A stretch of 64,000 nt of DNA from a virus, in IMG/VR virus record IMGVR_UViG_3300021181_000006, positions 64,001 through 128,000 of that record; one strand, 5' to 3'. Positions 1,673 to 49,594 of this stretch are shown here, piece by piece. Numbering within the stretch: position 1 is the first letter of the stretch; each line of letters begins with the position of its first letter. Below the pieces are notes generated by a model that was given only the letters and a program-made list of their open reading frames with translations, did no database searches and was not told the DNA's origin. Both the position numbers and the translations under genes were made by a program.

Positions 1673-3489
1673 TGGATTTCTTTCCTTATAAAGGTGTAAG
1701 ACCTCAACAAGAGAAAGCTATTCGTGAAGCACTCGCCGCCTATGAAGCCGGTAAGCGCTTTGTTGTCCTCGAAGGTCCATGTGGTTCCGGTAAATCAGCT
1801 ATTATTAAAACATTAGCTGATTACTATGGAACTGCACATATTATTACTCCATTAAAAGTACTTCAGACACAATATATCACCGATTTTCCTGGTGAGATTG
1901 TTGATGTTCGTGGTAAGTCTAACTATGTTTGTGCATATGACGCAGCTCAGAAAGCGAATCAAACCACCATTGATGGGAAACCACATAAAGCCAGATCCTG
2001 TAACCGTGGACCCTGTACCATTAAGGGATTCACAAAAGACAAAAAACTGTGCGAAGTTGAAGAAACTATCATCAATAATGAAGTTATTTCATTTGATGAC
2101 AATACTACCGTGTTACCTGATGGTCGGATTGTGCGATATTCTGGTTGCCCATATCAGGTGGCGAAAGCGATAGCGAAGCAAGCTCCCTTCATCTGTCATA
2201 ACTTTGAGAGTTTTCTCTATCAGAATATGAATCCTAATGGTGGATGGCAGACTCGGCCATTTATGGCTATTGATGAGTGCCATAATATAGAAGGTAAAAT
2301 GCTGGCATTCATGGGGGTTAATATCCCACAGAATGCACTGATGGATGGTGATTCACTGCAAGAATGTCATTCTTTAAGTGAATTTTATGACTTCTTCTGT
2401 ATCGATAAGCCATATACCTTTGATCAGATGATGGATTACTTCGGATATGAGCAGCGCTACTTCACTAAAAAAGGAGAGCCTCTCACTCCGTATTCTATGT
2501 TTACACGTGCACGGTATCTCATGGCACGATTCCAATTCTGGAACGATCAAGATGATGGACGCCTAGCTCATGAAGCGAATGAAATAGCTGAACGTGTGTT
2601 ACGTTTAGCGAATAACTACGAATATGCCCGAGATAAAGGACGACAGTGTGAATATGTCTTTGAGCTTCGTGAAGGACGTGATTACCCCACTCTCAGTGGC
2701 CAGCCACTGTATGCTGGTCTATTTTCAAGTCACTTATTTGGACATGGAGAGAGGATTATGTTGGCGTCGGCGACGATCCTTAATCCTGAGATCTTCTGTA
2801 GAGCGATTGGCGTCTCAATGGACGAAACCGAGTTCGTGTCCCTCGCATCTGATTTCCCAGCTGAAACTCGTCCTATCAAAAAAGTATATGCTGGAAGAAT
2901 GAGCTACGCTCATAAAGAAGCAACGATGCCGAAGTTAATAGACGGTATAGATAAGATTTTATCAGTGCATAGCACTGATAAAGGCTTGATACACACTCAT
3001 ACCTTCGATATCACAAAAAAGATCATCACAGTATTACAGGCCAAGTATCCTGATCGTCTCTTAACTACTGAGTTATTTAAAGATGAACATGGTAACAGAG
3101 CTAAGGATGCCATGTTAGATTTCCATGAGAAATCTCACATACCAACAGTAATACTCGATCCAGCCTGTGATCAAGGCGTTGATCTTCCAGATGATCTCTG
3201 TCGATTCCAGATATTAGCGAAGGTTCCATATCCAAATATGAATAAATGGATGAAGGCAAAGATGGCATTACCTGGTGGTCAGGAGTGGTATACTATGCAG
3301 GCCGCTCTGAAGTTTGTTCAGAGTTATGGACGTGGTAATCGGCATAAGGCCGATCAATGTGTACATTATTTACTCGATGCTGACTTCGATAACTTTCTCA
3401 ATTCATGTCAGCGCTTCGATCTCTTGCCTCGTTGGCTCCTCGATGCGTTTGACAAACCCAAGACGGTAGTTTTAGGCAGAAAATCATGA
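1672..3489 (+). CDS. DinG/XPD-family SF2 helicase
   Basis: Walker A EGPCGSGKS, IDECHN, LASAT, QGVDLPDDLCRFQILAKVPYP, QSYGRGNR; four Cys between motifs I and II fit an Fe-S cluster. Confidence 0.9.
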   Translation: MDFFPYKGVRPQQEKAIREALAAYEAGKRFVVLEGPCGSGKSAIIKTLADYYGTAHIITPLKVLQTQYITDFPGEIVDVRGKSNYVCAYDAAQKANQTTIDGKPHKARSCNRGPCTIKGFTKDKKLCEVEETIINNEVISFDDNTTVLPDGRIVRYSGCPYQVAKAIAKQAPFICHNFESFLYQNMNPNGGWQTRPFMAIDECHNIEGKMLAFMGVNIPQNALMDGDSLQECHSLSEFYDFFCIDKPYTFDQMMDYFGYEQRYFTKKGEPLTPYSMFTRARYLMARFQFWNDQDDGRLAHEANEIAERVLRLANNYEYARDKGRQCEYVFELREGRDYPTLSGQPLYAGLFSSHLFGHGERIMLASATILNPEIFCRAIGVSMDETEFVSLASDFPAETRPIKKVYAGRMSYAHKEATMPKLIDGIDKILSVHSTDKGLIHTHTFDITKKIITVLQAKYPDRLLTTELFKDEHGNRAKDAMLDFHEKSHIPTVILDPACDQGVDLPDDLCRFQILAKVPYPNMNKWMKAKMALPGGQEWYTMQAALKFVQSYGRGNRHKADQCVHYLLDADFDNFLNSCQRFDLLPRWLLDAFDKPKTVVLGRKS

Positions 3490-4616
3490 GTTTCTTTGGC
3501 GTGACGGTAGAAACCTTAGAGTCCATTACTCCCATCACCGGTGCTGACCGCATCGTGATGGGAATGCTGAAAGGCATGGACTATCAATTTATTCTTAAGA
3601 AAGGTGGCATTGCTCCTACACATCAGTGTATATTCTTTCCTATTGATTCTATCATTCCGGTTGAGCTACTGAAGTTCGTTGGTCTTGATGGTAAATTATC
3701 AGGAGGTTCCAAGAACCGAGTTAAAACTATCAAGATGAAGGGACAGATCTCTCAGGGACTGGTACTTTCTGTACCTGAAATTGAGAAATACTTACTCTCT
3801 ATCGGTAAACTGTTAGATACTTCATTAACTGATCTTACTGAGTGTCTTGGAGTGACGAAGTACGATCCTGAAATCATTGGAACCAGTCATGGTAGTAATG
3901 CTGCACGTGGTTCCATTAATCGTCCTCTGCCTGAAGATGTGCATCACTATGATATCGAAGGAACAGATCGCCATAAGGATATCATCGAAGTTCTTATGAA
4001 GACTCCGGTGTATATTACGGAGAAACTCGAAGGCATGAACTTCGCGTTAAAACGCGATCCTGAAGGTAATATCACGATCTGTAGCAGAAACCGTACCGTC
4101 TATGTTGAATCCGGTTCGATGATGAAGAGATTCTTTATGAGAATAAAGAATCTCTTCAAGAAACGTATCGTATCACAGCATGAACAGGCTATTCGTAATA
4201 GCGGACTTATAGAAGCTATTCATACATTGGCTGCGACATGTCACCCATATGATACGATTATATTCCGTGGTGAAGTCCTCGGACCACAAGTACAGAATAA
4301 TATTTATCATTTAGATAAACTCCGTGGCGTCGTATTCGATATCCAAATGGGTGGAGAATACCTCTCTGTCGAGCCATTCTTACGCTATGCAGCAGAACTT
4401 GGACTCAGTACTCCTCCTATGCTCTGGTGTGATGACACGTTAGAGAAGTTTCTTGGATATAAAACCATTGCTGAAATGAGCGATGGTATATCCAAACTCT
4501 TTGAGACGAAAAGAGAGGGTATTGTCATCAAGCCCATGGTTGAAGAGACATGCAAAATTGGTCGCATGTTCCTGAAGAAAAGATCGCCAGAGTATTTAAA
4601 CGAAAGCGATCTGTAA
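3486..4616 (+). CDS. RNA ligase, DRB0094/Rnl2-like family
   Basis: N-terminal domain (RVKTIKMKGQISQGL), adenylation motif TEKLEGMN, GEVLGP, EGIVIKP, FLKKRSPEYL. Confidence 0.9.
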   Translation: MSFFGVTVETLESITPITGADRIVMGMLKGMDYQFILKKGGIAPTHQCIFFPIDSIIPVELLKFVGLDGKLSGGSKNRVKTIKMKGQISQGLVLSVPEIEKYLLSIGKLLDTSLTDLTECLGVTKYDPEIIGTSHGSNAARGSINRPLPEDVHHYDIEGTDRHKDIIEVLMKTPVYITEKLEGMNFALKRDPEGNITICSRNRTVYVESGSMMKRFFMRIKNLFKKRIVSQHEQAIRNSGLIEAIHTLAATCHPYDTIIFRGEVLGPQVQNNIYHLDKLRGVVFDIQMGGEYLSVEPFLRYAAELGLSTPPMLWCDDTLEKFLGYKTIAEMSDGISKLFETKREGIVIKPMVEETCKIGRMFLKKRSPEYLNESDL

Positions 4617-4727: not shown

Positions 4728-5633
4728 ATGTCATCTCTCGTTATTAACGTTGGTGCTCAAGTCACTACGGCACGTGGGCAGAGTCTCACGATTACTATTG
4801 TTTCTAATGGTCGTTTTGGTGTTCGTGAAGTTGGTGGTAGAGCCCATTTCTGGAATGCATCAGGAACTGCTACTTCAGAGCGTACTTTAAACGCTTATGG
4901 CCATATCGTAGCTTCAGTTCCTGCAGCTGCCGATGAGGCAGCCACCGTAGCAGCACCTCGTCCCGCTTATCGCCAGCTCCCCGCCGTTGATATCGATGGT
5001 ATCATCGGCAAGATGGCTGCCGCCTGTGCTAGCGCTAACAAGTTCAAGGCTAAGGGCTATCAGCTCGTTCACGCTCTGCTCGCAGGTCGTGAAACCGTGA
5101 ATGCGTTTGATGTATGGGCGATGTCAGAACTCAGTCTCGATGAGAAGAAGTGGATTCTGCAGTCAACCCATGGCACTCGTTTCTTGCCTGAAACTTTTAG
5201 ACTCACTTCATGGGACAATTTTGTACGTGATCTCGCTCTTTGGCAGGATGCTACTACCTTAGTTATAACTCAAGGTCACTATTATCGCTGTAGTGATGGC
5301 AAGATTATCTTCATGAAGACTCAGCGTTCCGCCCAAGTTCTCTTAGGCACCGATACCCTGCAGTACAATCTCTCCATTGAGCATGATGGTAGCATTGGTT
5401 CGCGCTCATTCCGCGTAACCGAGGATTTGGGTACATCGTACCGAGAGGCCAGACCGCAGAATGGTCAGATCTATAAGTATATCACCGGCGGTCATATCAG
5501 AGTGATCATGGGTGACTATCTGGTCGATCCCACCAATGGATGTCGTGATGCTTGGAATACCCATCTGATTCATTATGATTTCGTCGGTAATCTTCCATCT
5601 TTTGGCATCCTCAAGGAACAGCTCGCTAAGTAA
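4728..5633 (+). CDS. Hypothetical protein with one copy of an approx. 55-aa repeat domain
   Basis: 301-aa ORF; shares a domain with 5636..6682. Confidence 0.75.
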   Translation: MSSLVINVGAQVTTARGQSLTITIVSNGRFGVREVGGRAHFWNASGTATSERTLNAYGHIVASVPAAADEAATVAAPRPAYRQLPAVDIDGIIGKMAAACASANKFKAKGYQLVHALLAGRETVNAFDVWAMSELSLDEKKWILQSTHGTRFLPETFRLTSWDNFVRDLALWQDATTLVITQGHYYRCSDGKIIFMKTQRSAQVLLGTDTLQYNLSIEHDGSIGSRSFRVTEDLGTSYREARPQNGQIYKYITGGHIRVIMGDYLVDPTNGCRDAWNTHLIHYDFVGNLPSFGILKEQLAK

Positions 5634-21612: not shown

Positions 21613-22398
21613 ATGGTAATATATAGAACCATGGATACTGGCAATACTACAAGTTTTACGGTTACTACTAATGTCAGTGGAAGTTTTGGGAATATTGGTA
21701 ACTATGTAAATTTTGTCACAGAAGTCCAGCAACCGAAGGAACAACATCCCGTGACCATCGAAATCGATGAATCAGGCAGAGTAACGTTCTTTGAGAAGAG
21801 AATCATCAAAGAAACGAACTTAGAAAATCTGTTAAAGACATTCGAGGAGCAGAAGCCGTTGTCATCAGGCTTACTCCCTCAAAACTGTATCAATTACACG
21901 AGACGTGGTCGGGCTACGATCTATGTGATCGAAGAGTTCCCTGGTGTTCGCAAAATTAATTATCAGACGCAGGCACGTGAACTACTCACTAATATGCCGA
22001 TTAGCGTACCATTCTTATATTGGGTTCTTGTCTTTAATCCTGCATTAACTGCATATGTGCGTTGTTCCAAACGTCGCTTGAAGACCTTGGACGATCCAGT
22101 ATTCCATCCTCCACTTCTGAACGTATACGATCAGGGTTCTGGCAAGATCTGTGCTGGTGATGGTGTTCAAGTAGATGCTCGTTCTAATCTGATAGAGAAG
22201 ATCGAACAGTTTACGAAAACACTCTGGGGATCTAATTGGAATCATGATTTGACTCCTGGATATCCTGCAGAGTTTAATAACTATCCACAATACATTCGTA
22301 TGTCATCCGCTGATCCAACCGTATGGTCCAAGCTCAGTTACAGGAAAAGCGACCTCAGTATTAATCAACTTCTCATGAGATTATCAACGAGTGAGTAA
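21613..22398 (+). CDS. Prokaryotic E2-like protein (Prok-E2_D / PRTRC protein B-like)
   Basis: LLPQNC, VPFLYWVL, FHPPLLNVY...GKICAG with candidate catalytic Cys; operon context. Confidence 0.75.
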   Translation: MVIYRTMDTGNTTSFTVTTNVSGSFGNIGNYVNFVTEVQQPKEQHPVTIEIDESGRVTFFEKRIIKETNLENLLKTFEEQKPLSSGLLPQNCINYTRRGRATIYVIEEFPGVRKINYQTQARELLTNMPISVPFLYWVLVFNPALTAYVRCSKRRLKTLDDPVFHPPLLNVYDQGSGKICAGDGVQVDARSNLIEKIEQFTKTLWGSNWNHDLTPGYPAEFNNYPQYIRMSSADPTVWSKLSYRKSDLSINQLLMRLSTSE

Positions 22399-22714
22399 AA
22401 AAGAGAGCGCGCAAGCCAATCGTGATCTCTATTACATGCTGAATGAGTATACTACTAGTATCAAAACGATCTCTATCGAAGAATATATCGATAAAGATCT
22501 GAAGATATTAACGGTAGAAGAATTAGCGAACACCAAGGTCACTGAAGCCAACTTCGGTGAAGTTATGTTCGTTAAGAAACTCCGTCAGTATGCCATGGAT
22601 AAAAACGTGGTATTTCGTGGCATGTCTATGGCAGATAAAATTGCTTTAGATAAAATTATTAACAAGATCCCCCTTTGTCAAGCTGTCACTACCGTAGAGG
22701 ATACTGACCTGTGA
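22391..22714 (+). CDS. Hypothetical protein within the Ubl operon
   Basis: 107 aa; overlaps both neighbouring genes. Confidence 0.65.
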   Translation: MSKKESAQANRDLYYMLNEYTTSIKTISIEEYIDKDLKILTVEELANTKVTEANFGEVMFVKKLRQYAMDKNVVFRGMSMADKIALDKIINKIPLCQAVTTVEDTDL

Positions 22715-24105
22715 AACTCGTTGGAACGCTGGGCATGCTGCCCCTTTATCATCTCGAAAAAGGAGATGATGTATCACAAATGTGCGATGATATCGAAAAG
22801 ACTTCATATATCCTGGCTCATGATGGGCTGTGGTTACTGAAGAAAACTGACTTTTTCTGGAGTCTTCGCGCTGCGAAGGTTCCTAACGCGGTTGAGAAGA
22901 CCGAAGCACTCATTAATACGCATGGCCTGCCTTTGGTCCCAAAAGAGGAGATGGATACGGCTATCGCCTTTTTTCGTCGCGTGTACGCCATACATAAGTC
23001 CGAAGCCGCGCTCATTCTCTATTGGCTCCCAGGCACGACGCAATTTAAGTGGACCTGTCCCAAGCAAACTGTTGCTCCAGCGTCAGTTAACTACAGCGAT
23101 GTCCCACATCCAGGCGAAGGCTGGATTGTCCTCCTCCACATGCATTCCCATGCATCGATGTCAGCATTCCATTCGGGTACTGACGACCATGATGAAAAAT
23201 TCGTGGATGGCTATAATATCACGATTGGGAAGCTAAACACTCCTGGTTATGAGTTTGAGTGCCGCATCATGATTGGTGGACTTAGCCTGAAGTCGAAGAT
23301 GGAAGATATTGTGGAGAATTGGTTACCTCCGGTTGGAGAGTTCCCTAATGAGTGGTTAAATAATGTGAATACTCCTCCTCCGTATGTGGCTCCTGCATAT
23401 ACGCCATATACTCCACTGGTTGGGTGTTTCCCGCCAGTTTCTCGTCCTTGGGATGATAAATACATGGCGCCTCAAGGCCATGGGTCACATAACTATGTTC
23501 CTCCCGGTCAGCATGGAGAGTGGAAGAGTGATCTGGGAAAATCGAGAGTCCCATTGACTTCGACGATGAAGCAGCAGAACAACGTCGATGGGAAGCGCTC
23601 TCATGGGAATGCTAAGAAGAATAAGAAATATCAGGCGCCCATGTCTGATCTGTATCCGCTCTCAGGGCCATCAAGAAATACATCTGAAACTGTCGCGGTT
23701 CGTAAATGGATCGATGCCAACTTCAAGTTTCTGACAGAACTCGGATATACTGGACAGGATTACGCTGCATTTCTGTCGATGACTCTTGCACAGGCCAAAG
23801 AAGAGCTTGAAGCAGATAATCGTGATTACTTTATTGGTAATGGATTAGCTCTTCCGACACAATGTGATATTTTAGGGTATAAACAGAATGTTATCCCCTT
23901 TAATCAACATGCGAGTGGTCGTGTGATGTTGACTCCTGTCGAACAGGAGAGCGATGGATTTGTTCCTGCTCCGTTCAACAGCAAGACCGATACGACTCCT
24001 GAAGAGGAGACGACGATTATTAGCCGTGAAACCGAACCTGGTAAAGTGGATGAAAATCCATTACAAGGTATTTATCTGACGAAAGCAAATGGCGGAATCA
24101 TCTGA
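22711..24105 (+). CDS. JAB/MPN+ metalloprotease (PRTRC protein A-like) with long low-complexity C-terminal extension
   Basis: KSEAALI (catalytic Glu) and HMHSHASMSAFHSGTDDHDE (HxHx7Sx2D). Confidence 0.88.
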   Translation: MKLVGTLGMLPLYHLEKGDDVSQMCDDIEKTSYILAHDGLWLLKKTDFFWSLRAAKVPNAVEKTEALINTHGLPLVPKEEMDTAIAFFRRVYAIHKSEAALILYWLPGTTQFKWTCPKQTVAPASVNYSDVPHPGEGWIVLLHMHSHASMSAFHSGTDDHDEKFVDGYNITIGKLNTPGYEFECRIMIGGLSLKSKMEDIVENWLPPVGEFPNEWLNNVNTPPPYVAPAYTPYTPLVGCFPPVSRPWDDKYMAPQGHGSHNYVPPGQHGEWKSDLGKSRVPLTSTMKQQNNVDGKRSHGNAKKNKKYQAPMSDLYPLSGPSRNTSETVAVRKWIDANFKFLTELGYTGQDYAAFLSMTLAQAKEELEADNRDYFIGNGLALPTQCDILGYKQNVIPFNQHASGRVMLTPVEQESDGFVPAPFNSKTDTTPEEETTIISRETEPGKVDENPLQGIYLTKANGGII

Positions 24106-25042
24106 GATCCTGACTCTCCCTACTCGGGAGAGTCAGCCCAATATGCAGCATGGCGTGTATGTTATTGGACTTGGTGGAATCGGATCCTGGCTCGTTGAGC
24201 CAGTGATGCGGTTCCTCCATTCCAAGAAGATGCTCGATCATACTGATATCATTCTGGTTGATGGCGATAAATACGAAGCAAGTAATCGTAATCGTCAAAT
24301 CGTTCATCCTAAGCTGATTGGTATGAATAAAGCGGATGCGACTGCGCAACGCATGCGTTCATACTTCCCAGAGTCATCCATTATCGCAGTGCCTCAATTT
24401 ATCTCAACAAAGCATGGGTCCTATTTCAAACAGTATCCTGCCAGGACCTGGATCCTCTCATGCTCAGATAATAATGTGTGTCGTCTCCATCTCAGTCAGA
24501 TTGCTGATGGCATGGATAATGTCACATTATTAACTGGTGGTAATGAGATGACTGATGGCAATTCTCATCTCTTTCATCGTACTGCTCGTAGCCATCAGAA
24601 TGAGACCTTACTGAAGAAGCATCCTGAGATTGCAGAAGCAAACGATGGTGATCGTTCAGCAATGTCATGTGAACAGCTTGCAGCATTACCTAGTGGTGGG
24701 CAGATTATTGTCACCAACTTTGTTTGCGCATCCACTATGTTAATGCATTTTTATCAATCCTGGGAAGCATATGCCAACCACAAGATCCCCGACTACAACG
24801 AATCATTCTTTGATATCAACAAATGCGCTTTCAACAGCATCGAAACTCGCTCCAGATCACGCGAGCAAGAACGTAGTCCAACAGAGCGAAACATTAGAGC
24901 GCGAGTCAATCTCTCAGAAGTCACAGCAGCCAGCGCAGAGCTTGTCTTCAATACCACCGAAGAGCCACCTCGGGTCCGAGATCGAGATCGAGGAGGAGGC
25001 GCTGGTCCTGCAGTTCCCGGACCAGAAGTTGAGGCTCGATAG
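24089..25042 (+). CDS. ThiF/E1-like Ubl-activating enzyme
   Basis: IGLGGIGS, LVDGDKYEASNRNRQ, NKA, CSDN, GGNE, MSCEQ (candidate catalytic Cys), IIVTN. Confidence 0.9.
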   Translation: MAESSEILTLPTRESQPNMQHGVYVIGLGGIGSWLVEPVMRFLHSKKMLDHTDIILVDGDKYEASNRNRQIVHPKLIGMNKADATAQRMRSYFPESSIIAVPQFISTKHGSYFKQYPARTWILSCSDNNVCRLHLSQIADGMDNVTLLTGGNEMTDGNSHLFHRTARSHQNETLLKKHPEIAEANDGDRSAMSCEQLAALPSGGQIIVTNFVCASTMLMHFYQSWEAYANHKIPDYNESFFDINKCAFNSIETRSRSREQERSPTERNIRARVNLSEVTAASAELVFNTTEEPPRVRDRDRGGGAGPAVPGPEVEAR

Positions 25043-38860: not shown

Positions 38861-39166
38861 TCAAGGAGTGGGTTTAGTCTTTATAAAGGCGATTAACTCG
38901 TCTATCTTTTTATTTAGCTTAACGTATTCTTCAGAATGCTCATTCTCTATCGATTCGATAGCGGTCTGAGTATTCCCTAATGCAAGTTTAAAGCGTTCAT
39001 TCTCTTCACTAATCTCATCGCCACGTTTAATAATTGCGTCATTAAGCTTCTTTATTTTCTTCAGGTCGCTTTGAGCGGCATGCAGAGAATCAACCAGCTC
39101 CTTTTTGGAGACAGACGGTTTACGTTTGGACTTAGCTTTGACCATTATTCCCTCCAGCTGACCCAC
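38861..39166 (-). CDS. Hypothetical coiled-coil protein
   Basis: Minus-strand ORF coupled to the phosphoesterase gene. Confidence 0.7.
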   Translation of the reverse strand: MGQLEGIMVKAKSKRKPSVSKKELVDSLHAAQSDLKKIKKLNDAIIKRGDEISEENERFKLALGNTQTAIESIENEHSEEYVKLNKKIDELIAFIKTKPTP

Positions 39167-40179
39167 TTCACTTTCTCAGAGACTGACTGTTGCGACTCAA
39201 GTTTAATGGGCATCCAGTAATTAATGCCGATCTCACGATGCGTCGTCCACAGTGCCTGCTGAGGAAGCTCGAAGTCAAAGTTGTTATCAGCAGCATACTC
39301 ATCATAGCCCTTAATGGAACCATTAACTATGATGCCTTTAAATTGCGCTAATTGATGCCAATGGCCCATTAACATGAAATCATAGCTTTGGTTGACAGCC
39401 GTCTGACGCTTACGCTTCTTGAAATCACCAGTCATGAGAGGTGATAGTAAGCCAGCGATACCTCCACCTCCACGGAACTGATTGCCATGGGTCAGCAGGT
39501 ACCGCGTACCATAGATATTATACTGACAGTCGGTTGACTCGCTGACCTTGAAGACCACGCGCTTGTCTCCTTCGTAGATAGTCTCCAACATGGTATAGAT
39601 AAGCCAGTCATAGTTCTTGAAAACGTAGTTTTTCGACTCGGGTTTAAATGTAGTACGACCATGGTTACCAACGACACATGGTATAAAGAGTCTAGGAAAG
39701 TGCTTCAGGAGTTCATCGATAGCCCACTTGATCTTCCCTACCAGTTCCTTGCACGACTTCAGAGCCGGGTCAGTATTGGTGGCGGTGAGTTCATGGTGGA
39801 TCTCTCCAGAGATCATGTCGCCACCAAGAGCGAGCACGAGGCCATCATACTTCGGGTTCACCATATGCTTGGTCAGCATGAGAATCGTCTTCTCAACGAG
39901 ACGCTGCAGACGGCGGTTAAAAATTTCTTTGTTGAAGGCATTCACATGCCCGATAGCGGTTGGATTTACGACTTCAGAGTAATGCCAATCTGACCAAAAA
40001 GCTGTAGGAATCCCTGGTGAATTGATGTTACTAGGGGTCTTGGTAGTCCACTCAGGTGTCACGATATTGGCCGATGATAGGCCGAAGATTTTCTCACGGA
40101 TATAGTCAGTCTCTAGGTTATTCTCTTTCGCATCTTTCAGTTCGGATTTCAATGCCTTGACCTGTTCTTTAAGATCCAT
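39145..40179 (-). CDS. Calcineurin-like metallophosphoesterase
   Basis: SDWH, GGDMISG, GNHGR, THG, GHWH; likely start ATG 40179 (track start 40269). Confidence 0.88.
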   Translation of the reverse strand: MDLKEQVKALKSELKDAKENNLETDYIREKIFGLSSANIVTPEWTTKTPSNINSPGIPTAFWSDWHYSEVVNPTAIGHVNAFNKEIFNRRLQRLVEKTILMLTKHMVNPKYDGLVLALGGDMISGEIHHELTATNTDPALKSCKELVGKIKWAIDELLKHFPRLFIPCVVGNHGRTTFKPESKNYVFKNYDWLIYTMLETIYEGDKRVVFKVSESTDCQYNIYGTRYLLTHGNQFRGGGGIAGLLSPLMTGDFKKRKRQTAVNQSYDFMLMGHWHQLAQFKGIIVNGSIKGYDEYAADNNFDFELPQQALWTTHREIGINYWMPIKLESQQSVSEKVKWVSWRE

Positions 40180-40288
40180 CTTGCGTATCCTTTTTTCTTG
40201 GGTATGAGTGGGGCAATGCCACGCCACTCGATTATCCCAAAGGATACTGCCCAGAGTGGTGGTCTGCAAGTAGAATCTCGATATACAT

Positions 40289-40365: not shown

Positions 40366-41527
40366 TTTTCGGTATAAGATCAGTACACCAAACCAAGGAA
40401 ACATCCCATGAGCGCTGATAATACCGTTGCTGTTTTTTCTACACCAGATGGCAAATCCTATGTCATCGAAGTACAGTGTATTGAGAGTCGGTTCTTACTC
40501 GAAACAGATCAGCTCGATCCTCTCTGGCATGTTGACATGCTGTCGAAGGCCGAGGTCTATACTTCTGAAGATGCGGCAATATGTGCTGCATTCGCACAAG
40601 CTGAGGATCACTATGTTGAGTACGGAGTATGTCGCGTGAAACTACCTCACACTCTCGCAGAATTCATCGAACAGATCGAACCAGTCTATCACAAGCTCCT
40701 GTTAGGAGTGATAGACATCAATGGAACCAAGACTAATACTGCTAAACGTAGGAAGTCGATCTACTTAGAAAACATTCTAAGAAGCTTGACAAGCCTTCAA
40801 GAGCAGTTATTATTGAAATCATGAAATGTATATCGTTCCATCAGACGTATCAAACCACATCAGGTAGTGCCTGAGGTTTCTATACTCTTTTGGTGAGTAC
40901 ATGAACCCTGGCCCGCAAAGCCAGGGTTTTCTTTTATATTTTTTATACACGTAAGGTTAAGGCCCGATACTGTCGGGAGATAGCGGCAACGAAGGTTGGG
41001 GTTGGCCGCATGGGGAATCGATGAAAACATCACATGATGAGTTTTATGTACAAATTATAACTGATAAGTACGCTGGGAATTTTGAACGGGAGATGTGCGC
41101 TTTCATTACTGGTCAGTATGGTGATTGTGGAGTTGGAGAAGAAGAGGCTCAGCTCGTACCGAGTCAGATACAGAGCTTATTTGAAGGAGCCATCGATCAT
41201 AAATCAGATGAAAGTGGGTGTGCAAGGCCATGTGAAGTAGACTACGGCGAACATAATGCATTTAAGATATTTTTCTTGAAAACCCCAACTCAACAGATGA
41301 TGGATATCATCTGTGAGCGTGCTGAAAGATTTTGTATGTCACGACAGAGCGCAGAACTTCGTGAAATTCTTGGTTTACCTAGTGTAAAAAGTTGTCCTAC
41401 TGTAATTAAGGCTATTACTATTTTCCATCAAAAAACTATCATTACAACGGTGATGGTGCTTGCCGAATCAGAATAATCAGTTAAATATACTACTTGAAAC
41501 GTATAGTATACCTCATAATATCATTAT

Positions 41528-42007
41528 ATGAAAATATGTACTATATGTAAAATTCCGAAGCTAGAATCGGAGTTTGATTTCACTAATAAAGCGACTGGTA
41601 CTTTGCATTATTATTGCAAAGAATGCCAACGCCCTAGGTCAAGACAATCATATTTAAGGAATAAGCATAAATATAAAGATAGATGGAAAGTACGTAAAGA
41701 TATAAGAATTATGGCAGCTAGACACTTTATTTACGAATATAAAAAAACTCATCCATGTGGATGTGGAGAGTCGGATCCTAGGGTATTAGATTTTGATCAT
41801 GATATACAAAATACAAAAGTACGGCCAATTTCTCAGATGATACAAACCGGTGTAATTATCAAAAGACTCCAGTTAGAAGTAGATAAATGCACAGTAAGAT
41901 GTGCTAATTGTCATAGAAAACGAACATCAGAACAATTAAACCATTATGCATGGTTGAAAAGTTCTGAGTATATACAGTTTGCATCTAGACTTAATGAGGA
42001 ATCTTAA
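41528..42007 (+). CDS. Free-standing HNH endonuclease
   Basis: CxxC...C..C, CGCGESDPRVLDFDH, KCTVRCANCHRKRT. Confidence 0.88.
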   Translation: MKICTICKIPKLESEFDFTNKATGTLHYYCKECQRPRSRQSYLRNKHKYKDRWKVRKDIRIMAARHFIYEYKKTHPCGCGESDPRVLDFDHDIQNTKVRPISQMIQTGVIIKRLQLEVDKCTVRCANCHRKRTSEQLNHYAWLKSSEYIQFASRLNEES

Positions 42008-42023
42008 TAATATAGTGAGATAT

Positions 42024-42098
42024 AGCGGGATAATTCAGTGGAAGAAAGCGATCCTCATAAGTTCGCAGTCGCTGGTTCGATCCCAGCTCCCGCAACCA
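42024..42098 (+). tRNA. tRNA with CAT anticodon (Met; A1:A72 mismatch, initiator-like)
   Basis: cgatc-ctCATaa-gttcg; A73 plus CCA; lacks the three consecutive G-C pairs of canonical initiators. Confidence 0.85.
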
Positions 42099-42109
42099 CT
42101 TATGGCGAT

Positions 42110-42242
42110 GGCGACGGTGATGGAATAGGCAAACATAATCTGGTGAAACGCACAGTTGCCTGGTCTTAGTACACTAGGAGGCGTGATCCAGATGAGGATG
42201 GTACTCATCTCCTGTCAGTTCGAGTCTGACCTGTCGCCTCCA
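42110..42242 (+). ncRNA. tRNA-like RNA with 8-bp acceptor stem and extended anticodon arm
   Basis: ggcgacgg/ctgtcgcc + TCCA; Leu-like D loop; T arm gtcag-ttcgagt-ctgac; long variable arm; approx. 44-nt structured insert in the anticodon loop. Confidence 0.75.
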
Positions 42243-42255
42243 ATTCAGTTCGTCC

Positions 42256-42324
42256 TGTGCATTAGCTCAGCGTAGAGCACTCGCCTCGTAAGCGATAGGT
42301 CGCAGTGTGATACTGCATGTACTT
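42256..42324 (+). tRNA. Degenerate tRNA-Thr(CGT), possible pseudogene
   Basis: tcgc-ctCGTaa-gcga; aberrant T loop; no CCA. Confidence 0.6.
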
Positions 42325-42328
42325 TTAT

Positions 42329-42401
42329 GGTTTGGTATATCAGTTGGTAGATTACTCGTTTGAAAAGCGAGAGGGCGGCAGTTCGAGTCTGTCCCAAACC
42401 A
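42329..42401 (+). tRNA. tRNA-Phe(GAA), no encoded CCA
   Basis: ctcgt-ttGAAaa-gcgag; canonical T arm. Confidence 0.88.
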
Positions 42402-42436
42402 TTCCTTTTTCTTATTAACGCATTACTAAGGTTTAT

Positions 42437-42772: not shown

Positions 42773-42852
42773 GGGCCTGAGGTATGATTGTGGTAGAGTC
42801 ACTCAGCTTATATCTGAGCATCAAGCAGGTTCGACTCCTGCCAGGCCTACCA
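42773..42852 (+). tRNA. tRNA-Ile(TAT)
   Basis: ctcag-ctTATat-ctgag; T arm gcagg-ttcgact-cctgc; A73 plus CCA; atypical D-arm linker. Confidence 0.8.
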
Positions 42853-46472: not shown

Positions 46473-47932
46473 TTTATAAATAAGAAGTTCTATGTTACTC
46501 GATGATATTAAAGACTGGTTTAAAGACCGGTATGCACTGCATCATATGATGCGGATTAATGTAGATGAAACATTCCATATTGGTAAGAAACAAATATTGA
46601 CGGTACGTATTACCTATCAGTGGCCTTTATTCGTAGATGAGCATAAGCAATCGGACCATCAATTCATAATACATATGACGCAAAAAGACTGGCATCATCG
46701 TGTTGCGGAGTATGTGTCAGGGATCAAACTGGATCTCATCAACGGAAAACTAGCTATCTACGATCCAAACGGTCATATTCGTTTATCTGGAACTACTGCG
46801 AACAAAATATTTTATTCGCATCAGCAGCCATTAATCTACCAACAACTTGGATGGCAATATTATAAGTTTAGAAATATGCATCGCCTCTGCACACTTGCGC
46901 CAGAAAAGATAGAGTATAAACTCCGTCTCATGCAGATGACTGCTTGGAATCCAGAACCTATCGAGATCTGTTTACACTGAATTTTCGGTATAAGAATCAT
47001 AGAGATCTACTATCTCTCATCTATAAAAAGGCATACATGTTAGCTGATACCATTTTGAGTGAACAAGAGTTTGCTCAACTCCGTAAACTCCTCCGTAAGA
47101 TGGACATCCCAGACCATCGCAGAGGCAATCTCGAAATTCAGGGAGCGCGATGGTTGTATAAACATCTTGCGCTCATGAATGCGAATAAGCCGGAATATCC
47201 TCAGGTCATGGCGTTATTAAAACGTATATCTCTCATAGATGATTGAAAGTTCCGCTTTCAATCATCTATGACCCATAAACTGTTTTAACAACCCATACAG
47301 GGGAGAGGACTATATCGTGTTAAACGAATTAATCGTCTACTCTGATGGTGGGTATCATGAAGAGATCATCTTGACTGATAGTACTGAGCGCTTCTTGAAA
47401 AAGACGCGTGGATACTATTATTCTGACATTTATGAAATCTATATGACGTGTGCGCGCATCAAGCGTGACATGGTTGTAGACTTCATAAAACGATGCAAGG
47501 AACATGAGTTTCCCGTCTCTACCCCCCAGAGAAGATTCTTGCAGATTTACTACATTGGCGGTTACCCAGAATATGTTGAGAAAATAGGTCATCCAGGTGA
47601 GTACGAACTTCTTGATATGACAGATATCAATGACGAACTCAGAGACCTGGAGAATAAACTGGCCAATATGGGAATCAAGCACACCTACGTTTCCATGATT
47701 CGGAAAATGAATGGCATTGAAGAAATATGGAATCACAAGTTCCAAGATGAGCGATCTGAAGCAGCTAAGATGTCGAAAGAAGAACTCCAGTACCAACAAC
47801 AACAGTTGCGAGTTTGGAGAAGTGTGGTAAACCAATACAGAAGATAACCGATGAAAATCGGTTATCTTTAGATAAAAGTAATATCTTTATAAAACATGGC
47901 TTTGTGGGGGAATAGGCAGACCCGTCAGACTT

Positions 47933-48679: not shown

Positions 48680-49594
48680 AAAATCTGATGTCCGCAAGGA
48701 CGTGTCGGTTCGAGTCCGACCAGAGCTACCAATAAATGGGTATTATCCTCAGCATCACTCTTGCAGTGATGCTTTTTATCTTAAATATTTTCTTTGCTGA
48801 GTATCTCTCTACGAAACATACCTTGAGAAACTTAAAGCTATACAAACAGCTGAATATAGAAACCATTTACACAACAGATGAGATACGTAAGCTCATCGTG
48901 AAATTCCGATGGATTATGGCAGTCATCATCCTGAATATCTTACTTATCATTACTGGAATGGTATTAGATCTCTATGTCTGAAAAACGCCCACTCATCGAC
49001 TCGGAAGTCGCAACACTTATTATTTGGATATTAGGAGTAATACTGATAGTAGGTATTATATGCGATACATTCTGTTTCTTTCGTAAAAAAAGAGCAGAAC
49101 AGTATAATAATTTGGTACAGGCTATCGCTAACGCTAAAACACCAGAAGAACGCGCTACATTTTCACGAGAATTAGAGATTCTTGATATCGATAAGGCTGC
49201 AAGTGATATCACTGAAGAAGCTCTGCTATTGGATCACGCAATTCAGAAAACAGCTACAAAAGAGTAACTATGAACGTATTCGACATCGGAGTCCTGATTC
49301 GGCAAACCTTTGTCGAATATGATCTTCTTTTAGACTTTAACTTTTATATATCTGATGAATATGCGATGATGTGCTATCCTGAAACAAATAGTTACATGAT
49401 ATTTAGACTCGGTGGCACTCTGCCATGGATGAACCTGCGTCCTTGTGCTTATGGACGTTTACTGCAGTTTGATTTCGACTTTCCTCAGACACTCATGACC
49501 CTTGGCCTCCAGACTGACGAAGTCTATCAATATCTCTTGAGAACTGGCAGGAGTAAACCGATCACCGAACAATACCTTTCAGATTTTTTGTAAG

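Follow-up and report, generated by a model that had tools for sequence, protein, structure and literature searches.

A tRNA-Leu(UAG) gene possibly turned into a non-decoding, tRNA-shaped RNA within a phage tRNA cluster

Whether a tRNA-shaped gene whose anticodon arm runs out into a long structured hairpin still reads codons, is spliced, is decaying or has become a different kind of RNA is the question raised by a 133-nt tRNA-derived element at positions 42110-42242 of the window, the 64,000-nt stretch of viral DNA (positions 64,001 to 128,000 of IMG/VR record IMGVR_UViG_3300021181_000006) analysed here. All features discussed below lie on the plus strand. Read directly from the sequence, the element begins 11 nt after the end of tRNA-Met(CAT) (42024-42098) and is followed after 13 nt by an aberrant tRNA-Thr(CGT) (42256-42324), which scores 40.8 bits in Rfam and receives no default ARAGORN call. 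It thus sits inside the phage tRNA cluster, on the same strand as its neighbours and with tRNA-like spacing, in the order Asn-..-Gly-Ile-Ala-Val-Met-element-Thr-..-Leu(UAA)-Lys-Glu-Ser. Two further tRNA genes of the window harbour group I introns, and a phage RNA ligase (PF09414) is encoded at 3486-4616.

The element combines an intact tRNA body with a markedly altered anticodon region. Its 8-bp acceptor stem is stacked on a 5-bp T stem to form a 13-bp branch; the 5' strand GGCGACGG (42110-42117) pairs with 42231-42238 through eight pairs, one of them G-U; in the Boltzmann ensemble, pairs 1-6 form with a probability of 0.99 and pairs 7-8 with one of about 0.5. Next come T8-G9, a class-II D arm with a 3-bp stem (ATG/CAT) and the 11-nt loop GAATAGGCAAA, and A26 (42118-42137). 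The outer "anticodon" stem consists of ATCTGG (42138-42143) joined by six Watson-Crick pairs to CCAGAT (42188-42193), and it encloses an extension of 44 nt (42144-42187). Constrained and free folds arrange this extension as an internal loop TGAA/GAT, a 4-bp helix ACGC/GCGT, a second internal loop ACAGTTG/AG and a tip hairpin, CCTGGT-CTTAGTAC-ACTAGG (42159-42178), taken here as a vestigial Leu(UAG) anticodon stem-loop. The 6-bp helix of this hairpin is capped by the 8-nt loop CUUAGUAC, with T (U) at position 37, and the anticodon-like loop is carried some 10 bp and two internal loops farther out than in a normal tRNA. Tandem G-A pairs are possible in the first internal loop, but a k-turn there was rejected from the sequence, the strand arrangement being wrong.

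The 3' half comprises a long variable region of 20 nt (42194-42213), a T arm GTCAG-TTCGAGT-CTGAC (42214-42230) stacked directly on the acceptor stem, and the acceptor 3' strand CTGTCGCC with discriminator T73 (U73 in the RNA) and an encoded CCA (42231-42242). A CCA is likewise encoded in 13 of the window's 16 other tRNA genes. The universal elbow residues are complete (T8, A14, G18 G19, A21, G53, T54 T55 C56, A58 and C61), and the helices of 8, 3, 6, 4, 6 and 5 pairs are unbroken, with two G-U pairs in total. A register giving a 7/5 tRNA and a His-like G-1:C73 pair was discarded, as its 3' tail would become UCCA instead of CCA. Every element named in the preliminary description of the locus is present at its place: the 133-nt gene behind tRNA(CAT), the 8/5 acceptor/T-stem with U73-CCA, the Leu-like D loop and the stem atctgg/ccagat around 44 nt containing both inner helices were all recovered in sequence and folds. 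Such an assembly of tRNA features goes well beyond coincidence.

One part of that description needs amendment. The bases of the proposed variable arm, gatgag/ctcatc, do exist, but three of them (GAT, 42191-42193) are shared with the 3' strand of the outer stem, so that the two helices compete and cannot both form in full. Each state takes up about 40-45% of the Boltzmann ensemble: the outer stem, with the extended variable hairpin as its competitor, has a probability of about 0.45, and the cloverleaf with the long arm accounts for only about 45% of the predicted ensemble. Within the variable region the alternatives are a GAG/CTC hairpin, the GATGAG/CTCATC hairpin and a 7-bp bulged stem. As a whole, the molecule is not predicted to be unusually stable (z = -1.3); the 56-nt arm alone is modestly so (z = -2.3 against mononucleotide shuffles).

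The tRNA finders suggested in the preliminary description gave a divided answer. Run in intron mode, ARAGORN places a tRNA precisely on 42110-42242 and reads it as Phe (GAA), interrupted at the canonical position 37/38 by an intron of 39 nt, while default ARAGORN makes no call at the element and nothing there reaches an Rfam gathering score; the canonical tRNA model RF00005 has no match at the element even at E<=10. The sole Rfam match is a mis-registered alignment to tRNA-Sec (RF01852), and apart from it no Rfam family, group I included, matches the element at E<=10, in agreement with the earlier statement that group I elements are missing. A group I intron or small ribozyme was accordingly rejected, the 39-44 nt insert also being too short for the RF00028 core, as was tmRNA, for which ARAGORN -m returned nothing and the third acceptor pair is C-G instead of G3-U70. 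Measured against a canonical elongator, the elbow and core residues agree, whereas the outer stem encloses 44 nt instead of a 7-nt loop and the branch has 13 bp instead of 12.

The Rfam match, albeit weak, makes tRNA-Sec the best-scoring family and bears on the idea of an unusual charged, decoding tRNA of the Sec or allo-tRNA type, which SerRS would aminoacylate by way of the long variable arm and U73 and which would serve in recoding. Like the element, tRNA-Sec and allo-tRNAs have a lengthened acceptor, a long variable arm and possible recognition by SerRS, and 8/5 geometry, a long variable region and U73 are features tied to such recognition (PMC5389517). Yet the score of 20.4 bits falls well short of the gathering score of 47, and no 7-nt anticodon loop is placed at the proper distance from the elbow. 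The G73, UCA anticodon, 6-bp D stem and normal anticodon arm of tRNA-Sec find no counterpart in an element with U73 and a 3-bp D stem; the likeness to tRNA-Sec drawn in the preliminary description is therefore one of geometry only. Allo-tRNAs, some of which share U73, have a 12-bp branch in an 8/4 or 9/3 arrangement (Mukai et al. 2017, PMC5389517), unlike the 13-bp branch and abnormal anticodon arm found here along with the shared long variable region. Of all the readings weighed in this work, a recoding tRNA of this type is the least probable.

The intron-mode call supports a second reading, already raised in the preliminary description, in which a tRNA carries a small intron: a hairpin of 39-44 nt would be cut out by a protein endonuclease, with RNase III or a phage nuclease as candidates, and the phage ligase would rejoin the ends to give a decoding tRNA of about 94 nt. 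The residual loop after splicing, G-U-GAA-A-C, possesses U33 and A37, the spliced form folds into a clean cloverleaf, the phage does encode an RNA ligase, and it tolerates introns in two other tRNA genes. The product, however, would place a Phe anticodon on a class-II body of Leu/Ser type with U73 and an 8-bp acceptor, and since a canonical tRNA-Phe(GAA) (42328-42402) lies 86 nt downstream, a spliced GAA tRNA would be either redundant or mistranslating. Moreover, the slot belongs to a tRNA-Leu(UAG), as set out below, and the Leu(UAG) loop motif falls within the supposed intron. The bulge-helix-bulge, with 3-nt bulges 4 bp apart, is absent (the internal loops measure 4x3 and 7x2 nt), the predicted 5' cut site is within a helix, and no ribozyme family in Rfam matches the element. 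To our knowledge, protein-dependent tRNA splicing has not been established in bacteria or phages.

Published precedent for such insertions comes from the tRNA genes of Lak megaphages, where "enigmatic", unclassified short insertions in the anticodon region came to light only when intron-aware settings were used (Devoto et al. 2019, PMC6784885). Those insertions are read as introns of otherwise ordinary tRNAs, whereas the spliced product of the present element makes little sense. Taken together, these points leave the intron-bearing tRNA an improbable explanation. Its boldest version, in which proteins alone, a double-strand-specific or phage nuclease together with the RNA ligase, excise the hairpin as a true intron and a class-II GAA tRNA with an 8/5 branch and U73, charged with Ser or Leu, recodes some Phe codons, is highly improbable; if true, it would mean protein-dependent tRNA splicing together with deliberate missense decoding in a bacterial virus.

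The ancestry of the element can be read from its slot and its parts. The relative compared at this locus is one IMG/VR contig, IMGVR_UViG_3300002026_000069, whose large terminase subunit (TerL) is 69% identical. Its tRNAs follow the order Asn-Gly-Ala-Val-Leu(UAG)-Thr-Leu(UAA)-Glu-...-Ser, and the slot is Val-Leu(UAG)-Thr there versus Val-Met-element-Thr here. Within the same genome, the best paralogue for both halves of the element is tRNA-Leu(UAA), split into a 5' exon (47898-47932), which is followed by the group I intron, and a 3' exon (48680-48732) with A73, CCA and 7/5 geometry. Identity to this gene extends over 10 of the 11 D-loop positions, 15 of 18 positions in the D-arm region and 17 of 19 in the T arm, where the two mismatches make up a single compensated pair (A-T for G-C). 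The tip hairpin and the anticodon arm of the relative's tRNA-Leu(UAG) have GGUCUUAG in common, an 8-mer (GGTCTTAG in the gene), the relative's loop being CTTAGAA. When the covariance model of the element is run on the relative, the top scores go to its two Leu tRNAs, and the model detects no long-armed RNA in the relative's tRNA region.

The relative's gene is a canonical tRNA-Leu(UAG) of 84 nt that shares with the element the cluster slot, the class-II D arm, the common 8-mer and an encoded CCA. It differs in its 7/5 branch and A73 (8/5 and U73 in the element), its 5-bp anticodon stem with a 7-nt loop borne directly on the body (a stalked hairpin with an 8-nt loop in the element) and its variable region of 13 nt (20 nt in the element). 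The slot, the Leu-type D loop and the shared tip motif together argue that the element descends from tRNA-Leu(UAG). On this sequence evidence, it is a descendant in which the anticodon stem was lengthened, A73 was replaced by U73 and one acceptor pair was gained. A73 is the Leu identity discriminator for bacterial LeuRS, and both Leu tRNAs compared carry it, in contrast to the element. A role of A73 in LeuRS recognition is reported for the Aquifex enzyme (PMC2377443). No second Leu(NAG) tRNA is present in the 184-kb genome of this uncultured phage. CUN codons account for 63% of its Leu codons, with CUA used least (6.4%), a usage that gives no decisive signal.

Searches for a homologue that keeps the insert returned none in the collections covered. 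Megablast and blastn against 50,697 phage records recovered no such homologue, and neither did exact and gapped DNA patterns in IMG/VR, whose single match is a chance one lacking tRNA features; a pattern spanning the D loop to the T loop gave nine matches in JGI metagenomes, all of them chance hits or ordinary bacterial tRNA-Leu. The 44-nt extension is unmatched in phage records, IMG/VR and Rfam. Its 20-nt tip hairpin has one exact match, on a cyanobacterial MAG contig with unrelated flanks, where about one is expected by chance. Protein-anchored searches of IMG/VR with the helicase and TerL as single queries yielded no relatives, and an exonuclease-like gene used in the same way brought up relatives at only 36-40% identity. 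This exonuclease-like gene appears to be mobile and common in Burkholderiales. A TerL alignment search reached 80 loci, of whose records 49 were scanned with the covariance model of the element, with no match at E<=0.01; in Salmonella phage Arash and Vibrio phage D69 this model found ordinary tRNAs only. The TerL protein relatives comprise P0121, 95% identical and located on a 183,593-bp contig, and P0122-P0126 at 63-69%.

These searches bear on a third reading, a dying tRNA-Leu(UAG) that received insertions or a palindrome-extending replication error and is now a recently inactivated, functionless pseudogene. The insert is kept by no homologue among the records searched, the relative compared has an ordinary tRNA-Leu(UAG) in the same slot, the tip loop has diverged to a length of 8 nt and carries U37, and the adjoining tRNA-Thr(CGT) is likewise aberrant. 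In addition, the outer and tip stems both contain CUGG/C(C or U)AG, which on reading the sequence hints at a duplication-type origin. Against decay, however, the elbow residues and the encoded CCA are all preserved, and so is every helix, despite heavy divergence from the relative's orthologue. Several of the changes are also constructive ones: an acceptor pair was added, ten extra complementary pairs surround the old hairpin and the variable region became longer. No further copy of the insert exists in the genome, and a repeated mobile mini-element was rejected on that ground. Finally, the same design recurs in conserved, covarying and annotated stable RNAs of T5-like phages. A functionless pseudogene is thus unlikely, though less so than an intron-bearing tRNA, and both are weaker rivals than a stable RNA.

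The explanation that we favour, with moderate confidence, is that a tRNA-Leu(UAG) gene was turned into a non-decoding, tRNA-shaped stable RNA of which one sequence is known. The "repurposed tRNA mimic" of the preliminary description fits best in this respect, given the Leu(UAG) slot, the Leu-type body, the loss of decoding features and an architecture like that of T5 and T4 RNAs. With the old anticodon hairpin on a long stalk, codon reading is probably impossible, and the element probably does not decode by its anticodon. The features lost for decoding or Leu charging are several: the loop is too far from the body, it has 8 nt, it carries U at 37, and the discriminator is U73. The predicted RNA would be co-transcribed with the adjoining tRNAs and excised by RNase P and the 3' tRNA-processing enzymes. 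These enzymes rely on nothing more than the acceptor/T-arm helix and the elbow, and both are intact here. It would then accumulate as a stable RNA of about 133 nt, unable to put an anticodon into the ribosomal decoding centre and no longer a substrate of LeuRS, and would work like T5 RNA1 and RNA2 and T4 rnaC, as a tRNA chassis bearing a rod-like arm.

As to what such an RNA might do, our guess is a putative mimic or decoy that occupies a tRNA-binding protein, for example a tRNA enzyme or a defence nuclease of the host that targets tRNAs. The preliminary description named as candidate roles a decoy for anticodon nucleases or tRNA sensors and an amino-acid donor. The degenerate tip loop weakens the idea that the hairpin is presented to an anticodon-reading protein. 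A secondary possibility is a putative role as aminoacyl donor, conceivable since a long variable arm and U73 would permit charging by SerRS, which accepts 8/5 geometry and recognises a long variable arm with G73 or U73 (PMC5389517). A function in evading defence or in sequestering a tRNA enzyme, if confirmed, would matter for the relation between phage tRNAs and tRNA-cleaving immunity.

Stable, tRNA-shaped, non-decoding RNAs of T4 and T5 have been known for decades, and the element would add to them a case whose origin is readable from the genome: a genuine tRNA-Leu(UAG) gene that has kept its slot and is caught in conversion, with the old anticodon hairpin left at the tip. This suggests that tRNA-like stable RNAs may arise repeatedly from Leu-type tRNAs, and need not be one ancient family. 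The element and the relative's gene also form a natural before-and-after pair for asking what the long arm binds.

Among known systems the closest counterparts are found in T5, where RNA1 (misc_RNA T5s03, NC_005859 30501-30644) and RNA2 (T5s06) are annotated as "tRNA-like stable RNA with unknown functions" within a cluster of tRNA and HNH endonuclease genes. RNA1 resembles the element in lying inside a tRNA cluster, in its case interspersed with HNH endonuclease genes, and in its tRNA-like acceptor helix, its T arm and a D arm of Leu type (UG-CCG-GAAUUGGUAGA-CGG). Where a tRNA has its anticodon arm, RNA1 stacks three helices of 6, 4-5 and 5-6 bp separated by two internal loops, the whole arm measuring 59 nt against 56 nt in the element and ending, as there, in an 8-nt apical loop. 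A hairpin occupies the variable position, and its loop (AATGGTC) and that of the element (GATGGTA) share AUGGU. Unlike the element, RNA1 has an acceptor of 6-7 bp, lacks an encoded CCA and carries a strongly conserved apical loop that does not resemble an anticodon loop; it also coexists in T5 with a normal tRNA-Leu(UAG), whereas the element takes the place of its own. RNA1 is matched at 74-100% identity in 487 phage records, with 11 covarying pairs among the eight records aligned. In an alignment to the model of the element, each helix of RNA1 finds its counterpart. In the reverse direction the RNA1 model gives the element 29.2 bits, the best in the 15-kb tRNA region, and gives a normal tRNA-Leu(UAA) 45 bits; as it favours the normal tRNA-Leu, what RNA1 and the element have in common is their architecture and a chassis of Leu type. 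BLAST detects no sequence similarity between the insert and T5 RNA1 or RNA2.

T5 RNA2 and the T4 species 1 RNA (rnaC) lie, like the element, among phage tRNA genes and combine a tRNA-type T arm and acceptor helix with a long irregular arm instead of an anticodon arm. RNA2 even shares the 8/5 geometry, with eight acceptor positions (seven or eight paired) on a 5-bp T stem, and rnaC folds into an acceptor-like stem, a long arm, a variable-like hairpin and a T arm. They depart from the element in that RNA2 has a 5-bp D-like hairpin and rnaC no D arm, and neither encodes CCA after the discriminator or is similar to it in sequence. A man-made parallel to this natural design is provided by engineered tRNA scaffolds in which a hairpin replaces the anticodon arm, reported to allow efficient recombinant RNA expression in E. 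coli (PMC3753655). The tRNA-like stable RNAs of T5 and T4, a class set by architecture and not a curated family, are most likely what the element resembles most, and this resemblance lies in its architecture: a tRNA body that has exchanged its anticodon arm for a long rod.

The tRNA cluster of the source virus, whose IMG/VR record totals 184,466 bp and includes the window, spans positions ~32 to 56 kb of the window. The element (42110-42242, plus strand) lies in it 11 nt 3' of tRNA-Met(CAT) and 13 nt 5' of an aberrant tRNA-Thr(CGU), itself followed by a normal tRNA-Phe(GAA). Sequence reading and folding located there every part listed in the preliminary description. The acceptor stem has 8 bp, one of them G-U, and a 5-bp T stem (loop UUCGAGU) is stacked straight on top of it; U8-G9 is present, and the class-II D arm has a 3-bp stem and the loop GAAUAGGCAAA. 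The 6-bp “anticodon” stem AUCUGG/CCAGAU encloses 44 nt, within which ACGC/GCGU pair as a helix of 4 bp and CCUGGU/ACUAGG as one of 6 bp with the 8-nt loop CUUAGUAC at its end; the variable region is 20 nt long. At the 3' end a discriminator U precedes a CCA encoded in the gene, and the reading as 8-bp stem, U73 and CCA is supported by the window's other tRNA genes, 13 of 16 of which likewise encode CCA. The proposed variable hairpin gatgag/ctcatc fared less well: its sequence is present, but three bases are shared with the ccagat strand, so that the two compete and cannot both form in full. The predicted ensemble comprises a long-arm cloverleaf (~40-45%, at -41 to -43 kcal/mol; MFE -43.8) and an alternative (~40-45%), and the arm, folded by itself, exceeds shuffles in stability by a modest margin (z = -2.3).

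Standard tRNA finders do not call the element. Its sole Rfam match at E<=10 is tRNA-Sec, at 20.4 bits versus a gathering score of 47 and with a mis-registered alignment; a Sec- or allo-type decoding tRNA is highly improbable, as a usable anticodon arm is missing. The intron mode of ARAGORN reports a tRNA(GAA) with an 8-bp acceptor, a long variable arm and a 39-nt intron at 37/38, and its gene ends coincide exactly with those originally proposed.

Comparison with other phages points to the ancestry of the element. A protein search with TerL of the source phage (G000:C1:165743-167281, minus strand) found one relative at 95% identity and several at 63-69%. The 95% match, P0121, is encoded on a 183,593-bp contig present in JGI, Logan and ENA, which is a near relative. 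An alignment-based TerL scan of IMG/VR recovered one such relative, a 100-kb contig (IMGVR_UViG_3300002026_000069, hereafter the relative) with a 69% identical TerL. The window has the tRNA order Asn, Pro, Trp, Gly, Ile, Ala, Val, Met, element, Thr(CGU), Phe, Ile(UAU), Gln, His, Leu(UAA), Lys, Glu, Ser, and the relative Gln, Asn, Gly, Ala, Val, Leu(UAG), Thr, Leu(UAA), Glu, Ile(UAU), Ser, Lys, Arg, so that the element holds the slot of an ordinary 84-nt tRNA-Leu(UAG). No other Leu(NAG) tRNA was found in the whole 184-kb genome. Synteny thus suggests that the element was not imported as a family member but arose locally from the Leu(UAG) gene of the phage itself.

The body of the element is also of Leu type. 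Both its halves match the intron-split tRNA-Leu(UAA) better than any other tRNA of the phage, with identity at 10 of 11 D-loop positions and at 17 of 19 in the T arm, where the two differences form one compensated pair; when a covariance model of the element is run on the relative, the two Leu tRNAs score highest. The apical hairpin has the 8-mer GGUCUUAG in common with tRNA-Leu(UAG) of the relative, where it lies in the anticodon arm (loop CUUAGAA); from this we conclude that the apical hairpin is the former Leu(UAG) anticodon stem-loop. Compared with this orthologue, the hairpin is flanked by mutually complementary additions of ~21 nt (5') and 15 nt (3'), the tip loop has gained one nucleotide and carries U at position 37, the acceptor has gained one pair (an extra 5' G facing C in place of A73), the discriminator U is new and the variable region measures 20 nt versus 13 nt. 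The order of these changes is not datable because the two genomes are far apart, orthologous tRNAs being 65-83% identical.

Two further alternatives were weighed. An intron-bearing tRNA would agree with the ARAGORN call and with the RNA ligase encoded by the phage, but is improbable: splicing would place a Phe anticodon on a Leu/Ser body beside a normal tRNA-Phe, the bulge-helix-bulge motif is absent, and the ancestral anticodon falls inside the supposed “intron”. Somewhat less improbable, though still unlikely, is a pseudogene, which would agree with the drift of the loop and with the relative having a normal gene; against decay stand six intact helices, an intact elbow and CCA, and the constructive character of the changes.

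Searches for a homologue keeping the insert returned none in phage records, none by pattern search in IMG/VR or in JGI metagenomes, none in 49 TerL relatives (~40% identity), Salmonella phage Arash and Vibrio phage D69, and none in the relative's tRNA region with filters off. Species genomes likewise held no insert-bearing homologue and gave a single match to a 20-mer of the tip, an exact copy of the tip hairpin in an intergenic part of the Elainellaceae cyanobacterium MAG contig JBHJHJ010000241.1 (912-931, minus strand). This copy is lengthened by AA/UU, its flanks are unrelated to the element, and the match is at chance level, the expectation being about one in 596 Gb.

The element is a real tRNA-derived gene, and we favour, with evenly balanced confidence, its reading as a non-decoding, tRNA-processed stable RNA. 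Since tRNA geometry is fixed, the extra 6-bp helix, the 4-bp helix and two internal loops would keep the anticodon loop from reaching the decoding centre while the CCA end occupies the peptidyl-transferase centre. In bacteria generally A73 is regarded as decisive for LeuRS, and the element has lost it. A73 is a reported recognition element of Aquifex LeuRS (PMC2377443). The acceptor/T helix and elbow are intact, and these are the only parts read by the CCA enzyme, by RNase P and by the enzymes of 3' processing. The phage devotes much to tRNA biology: it carries ~20 tRNA genes, an RNA ligase and two group I introns that interrupt tRNAs. As to function, our first guess is that the RNA would engage a tRNA-binding protein as a mimic or decoy. 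A seryl-charged, non-ribosomal role may be a secondary possibility, because the combination of U73, a long variable arm and an 8/5 branch is described as SerRS-compatible (PMC5389517).

The surroundings of the element add several observations. A strong terminator-like hairpin (40903-40929, plus strand; 10 pairs and a T-run) 3' of the ORF 40408-40824, together with promoter-like sites at 41494-41521 and 41908-41936, which precede the HNH gene and the Met-element-Thr-Phe group, suggests that this group may form a separate transcription unit. The adjoining tRNA-Thr(CGU) (42256-42324, plus strand; Rfam 40.8 bits), missed by default ARAGORN, lacks CCA; its first acceptor pairs are mismatched, and its T arm (GCAG-UGUGAUA-CUGC) departs from the standard form. 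With the T-rich tail after it, this T arm is terminator-like in a consensus scan. An additional tRNA missed by ARAGORN (42773-42849, plus strand; Rfam 32 bits), Ile(UAU) by its loop CUUAUAU, encodes CCA; an Ile(UAU) is present in the relative too. The only sizeable minus-strand gene in the cluster (39145-40269), a PHROG “exonuclease” match, has homologues numbering in the thousands (~45-52% identity). Several of these are named from genomes of Burkholderiales and other proteobacteria, an HTH_8 domain occurs in some, and one bears the name “transposase-like”. The gene resembles a mobile one that has entered between tRNA-Ala and tRNA-Val, and it says little about kinship among phages. In the early region, domain matches to prokaryotic E2 family D (PF14460) and ThiF/E1 (PF00899) in adjoining genes (21613-25042, plus strand) indicate a putative ubiquitin-like conjugation pair.

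The design of the element is that of RNAs already annotated in the cultured phages T5 and T4. T5 RNA1 and RNA2, annotated as “tRNA-like stable RNA with unknown functions”, are sited among tRNA and HNH endonuclease genes, and rnaC and rnaD within the T4 tRNA cluster. Like the element, T5 RNA1 has a Leu-type D arm, a variable-position hairpin and a T arm, and its arm of 59 nt (56 nt in the element) comprises three helices, two internal loops and an 8-nt loop. It has matches of 74-100% identity in 487 phage records, and among eight of these that were aligned 11 pairs covary, with pairs in all three arm helices among them. An element-based model aligns T5 RNA1 helix for helix, and a model built from T5 RNA1 homologues alone finds the element as the best match in the 15-kb tRNA region (29.2 bits); as it scores a normal tRNA-Leu(UAA) higher (45 bits), the feature common to both RNAs is the Leu-type chassis. 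Their arms have no common sequence, and the likeness is architectural. T5 RNA2 (4960-5084, minus strand, of the T5 sequence L114; homologues L123-L127) keeps in six T5-like phages an acceptor stem of eight positions stacked on a T stem of 5 bp, together with a D-like hairpin of 5 bp and a ~67-nt arm, with eight covarying pairs; it has matches in 436 phage records, among them a partial match in Acinetobacter phage Acj9. T4 rnaC folds into an acceptor-like stem, a long arm, a variable-like hairpin and a T arm (z = -4.6). On this reading the element would be a novel form within a known, unexplained class of phage tRNA-like stable RNAs, particular in its origin traceable to a Leu(UAG) gene, its retained anticodon-type tip and its 8/5 branch with a U73-CCA end, and together with the relative's Leu(UAG) gene it offers a useful evolutionary before-and-after pair.
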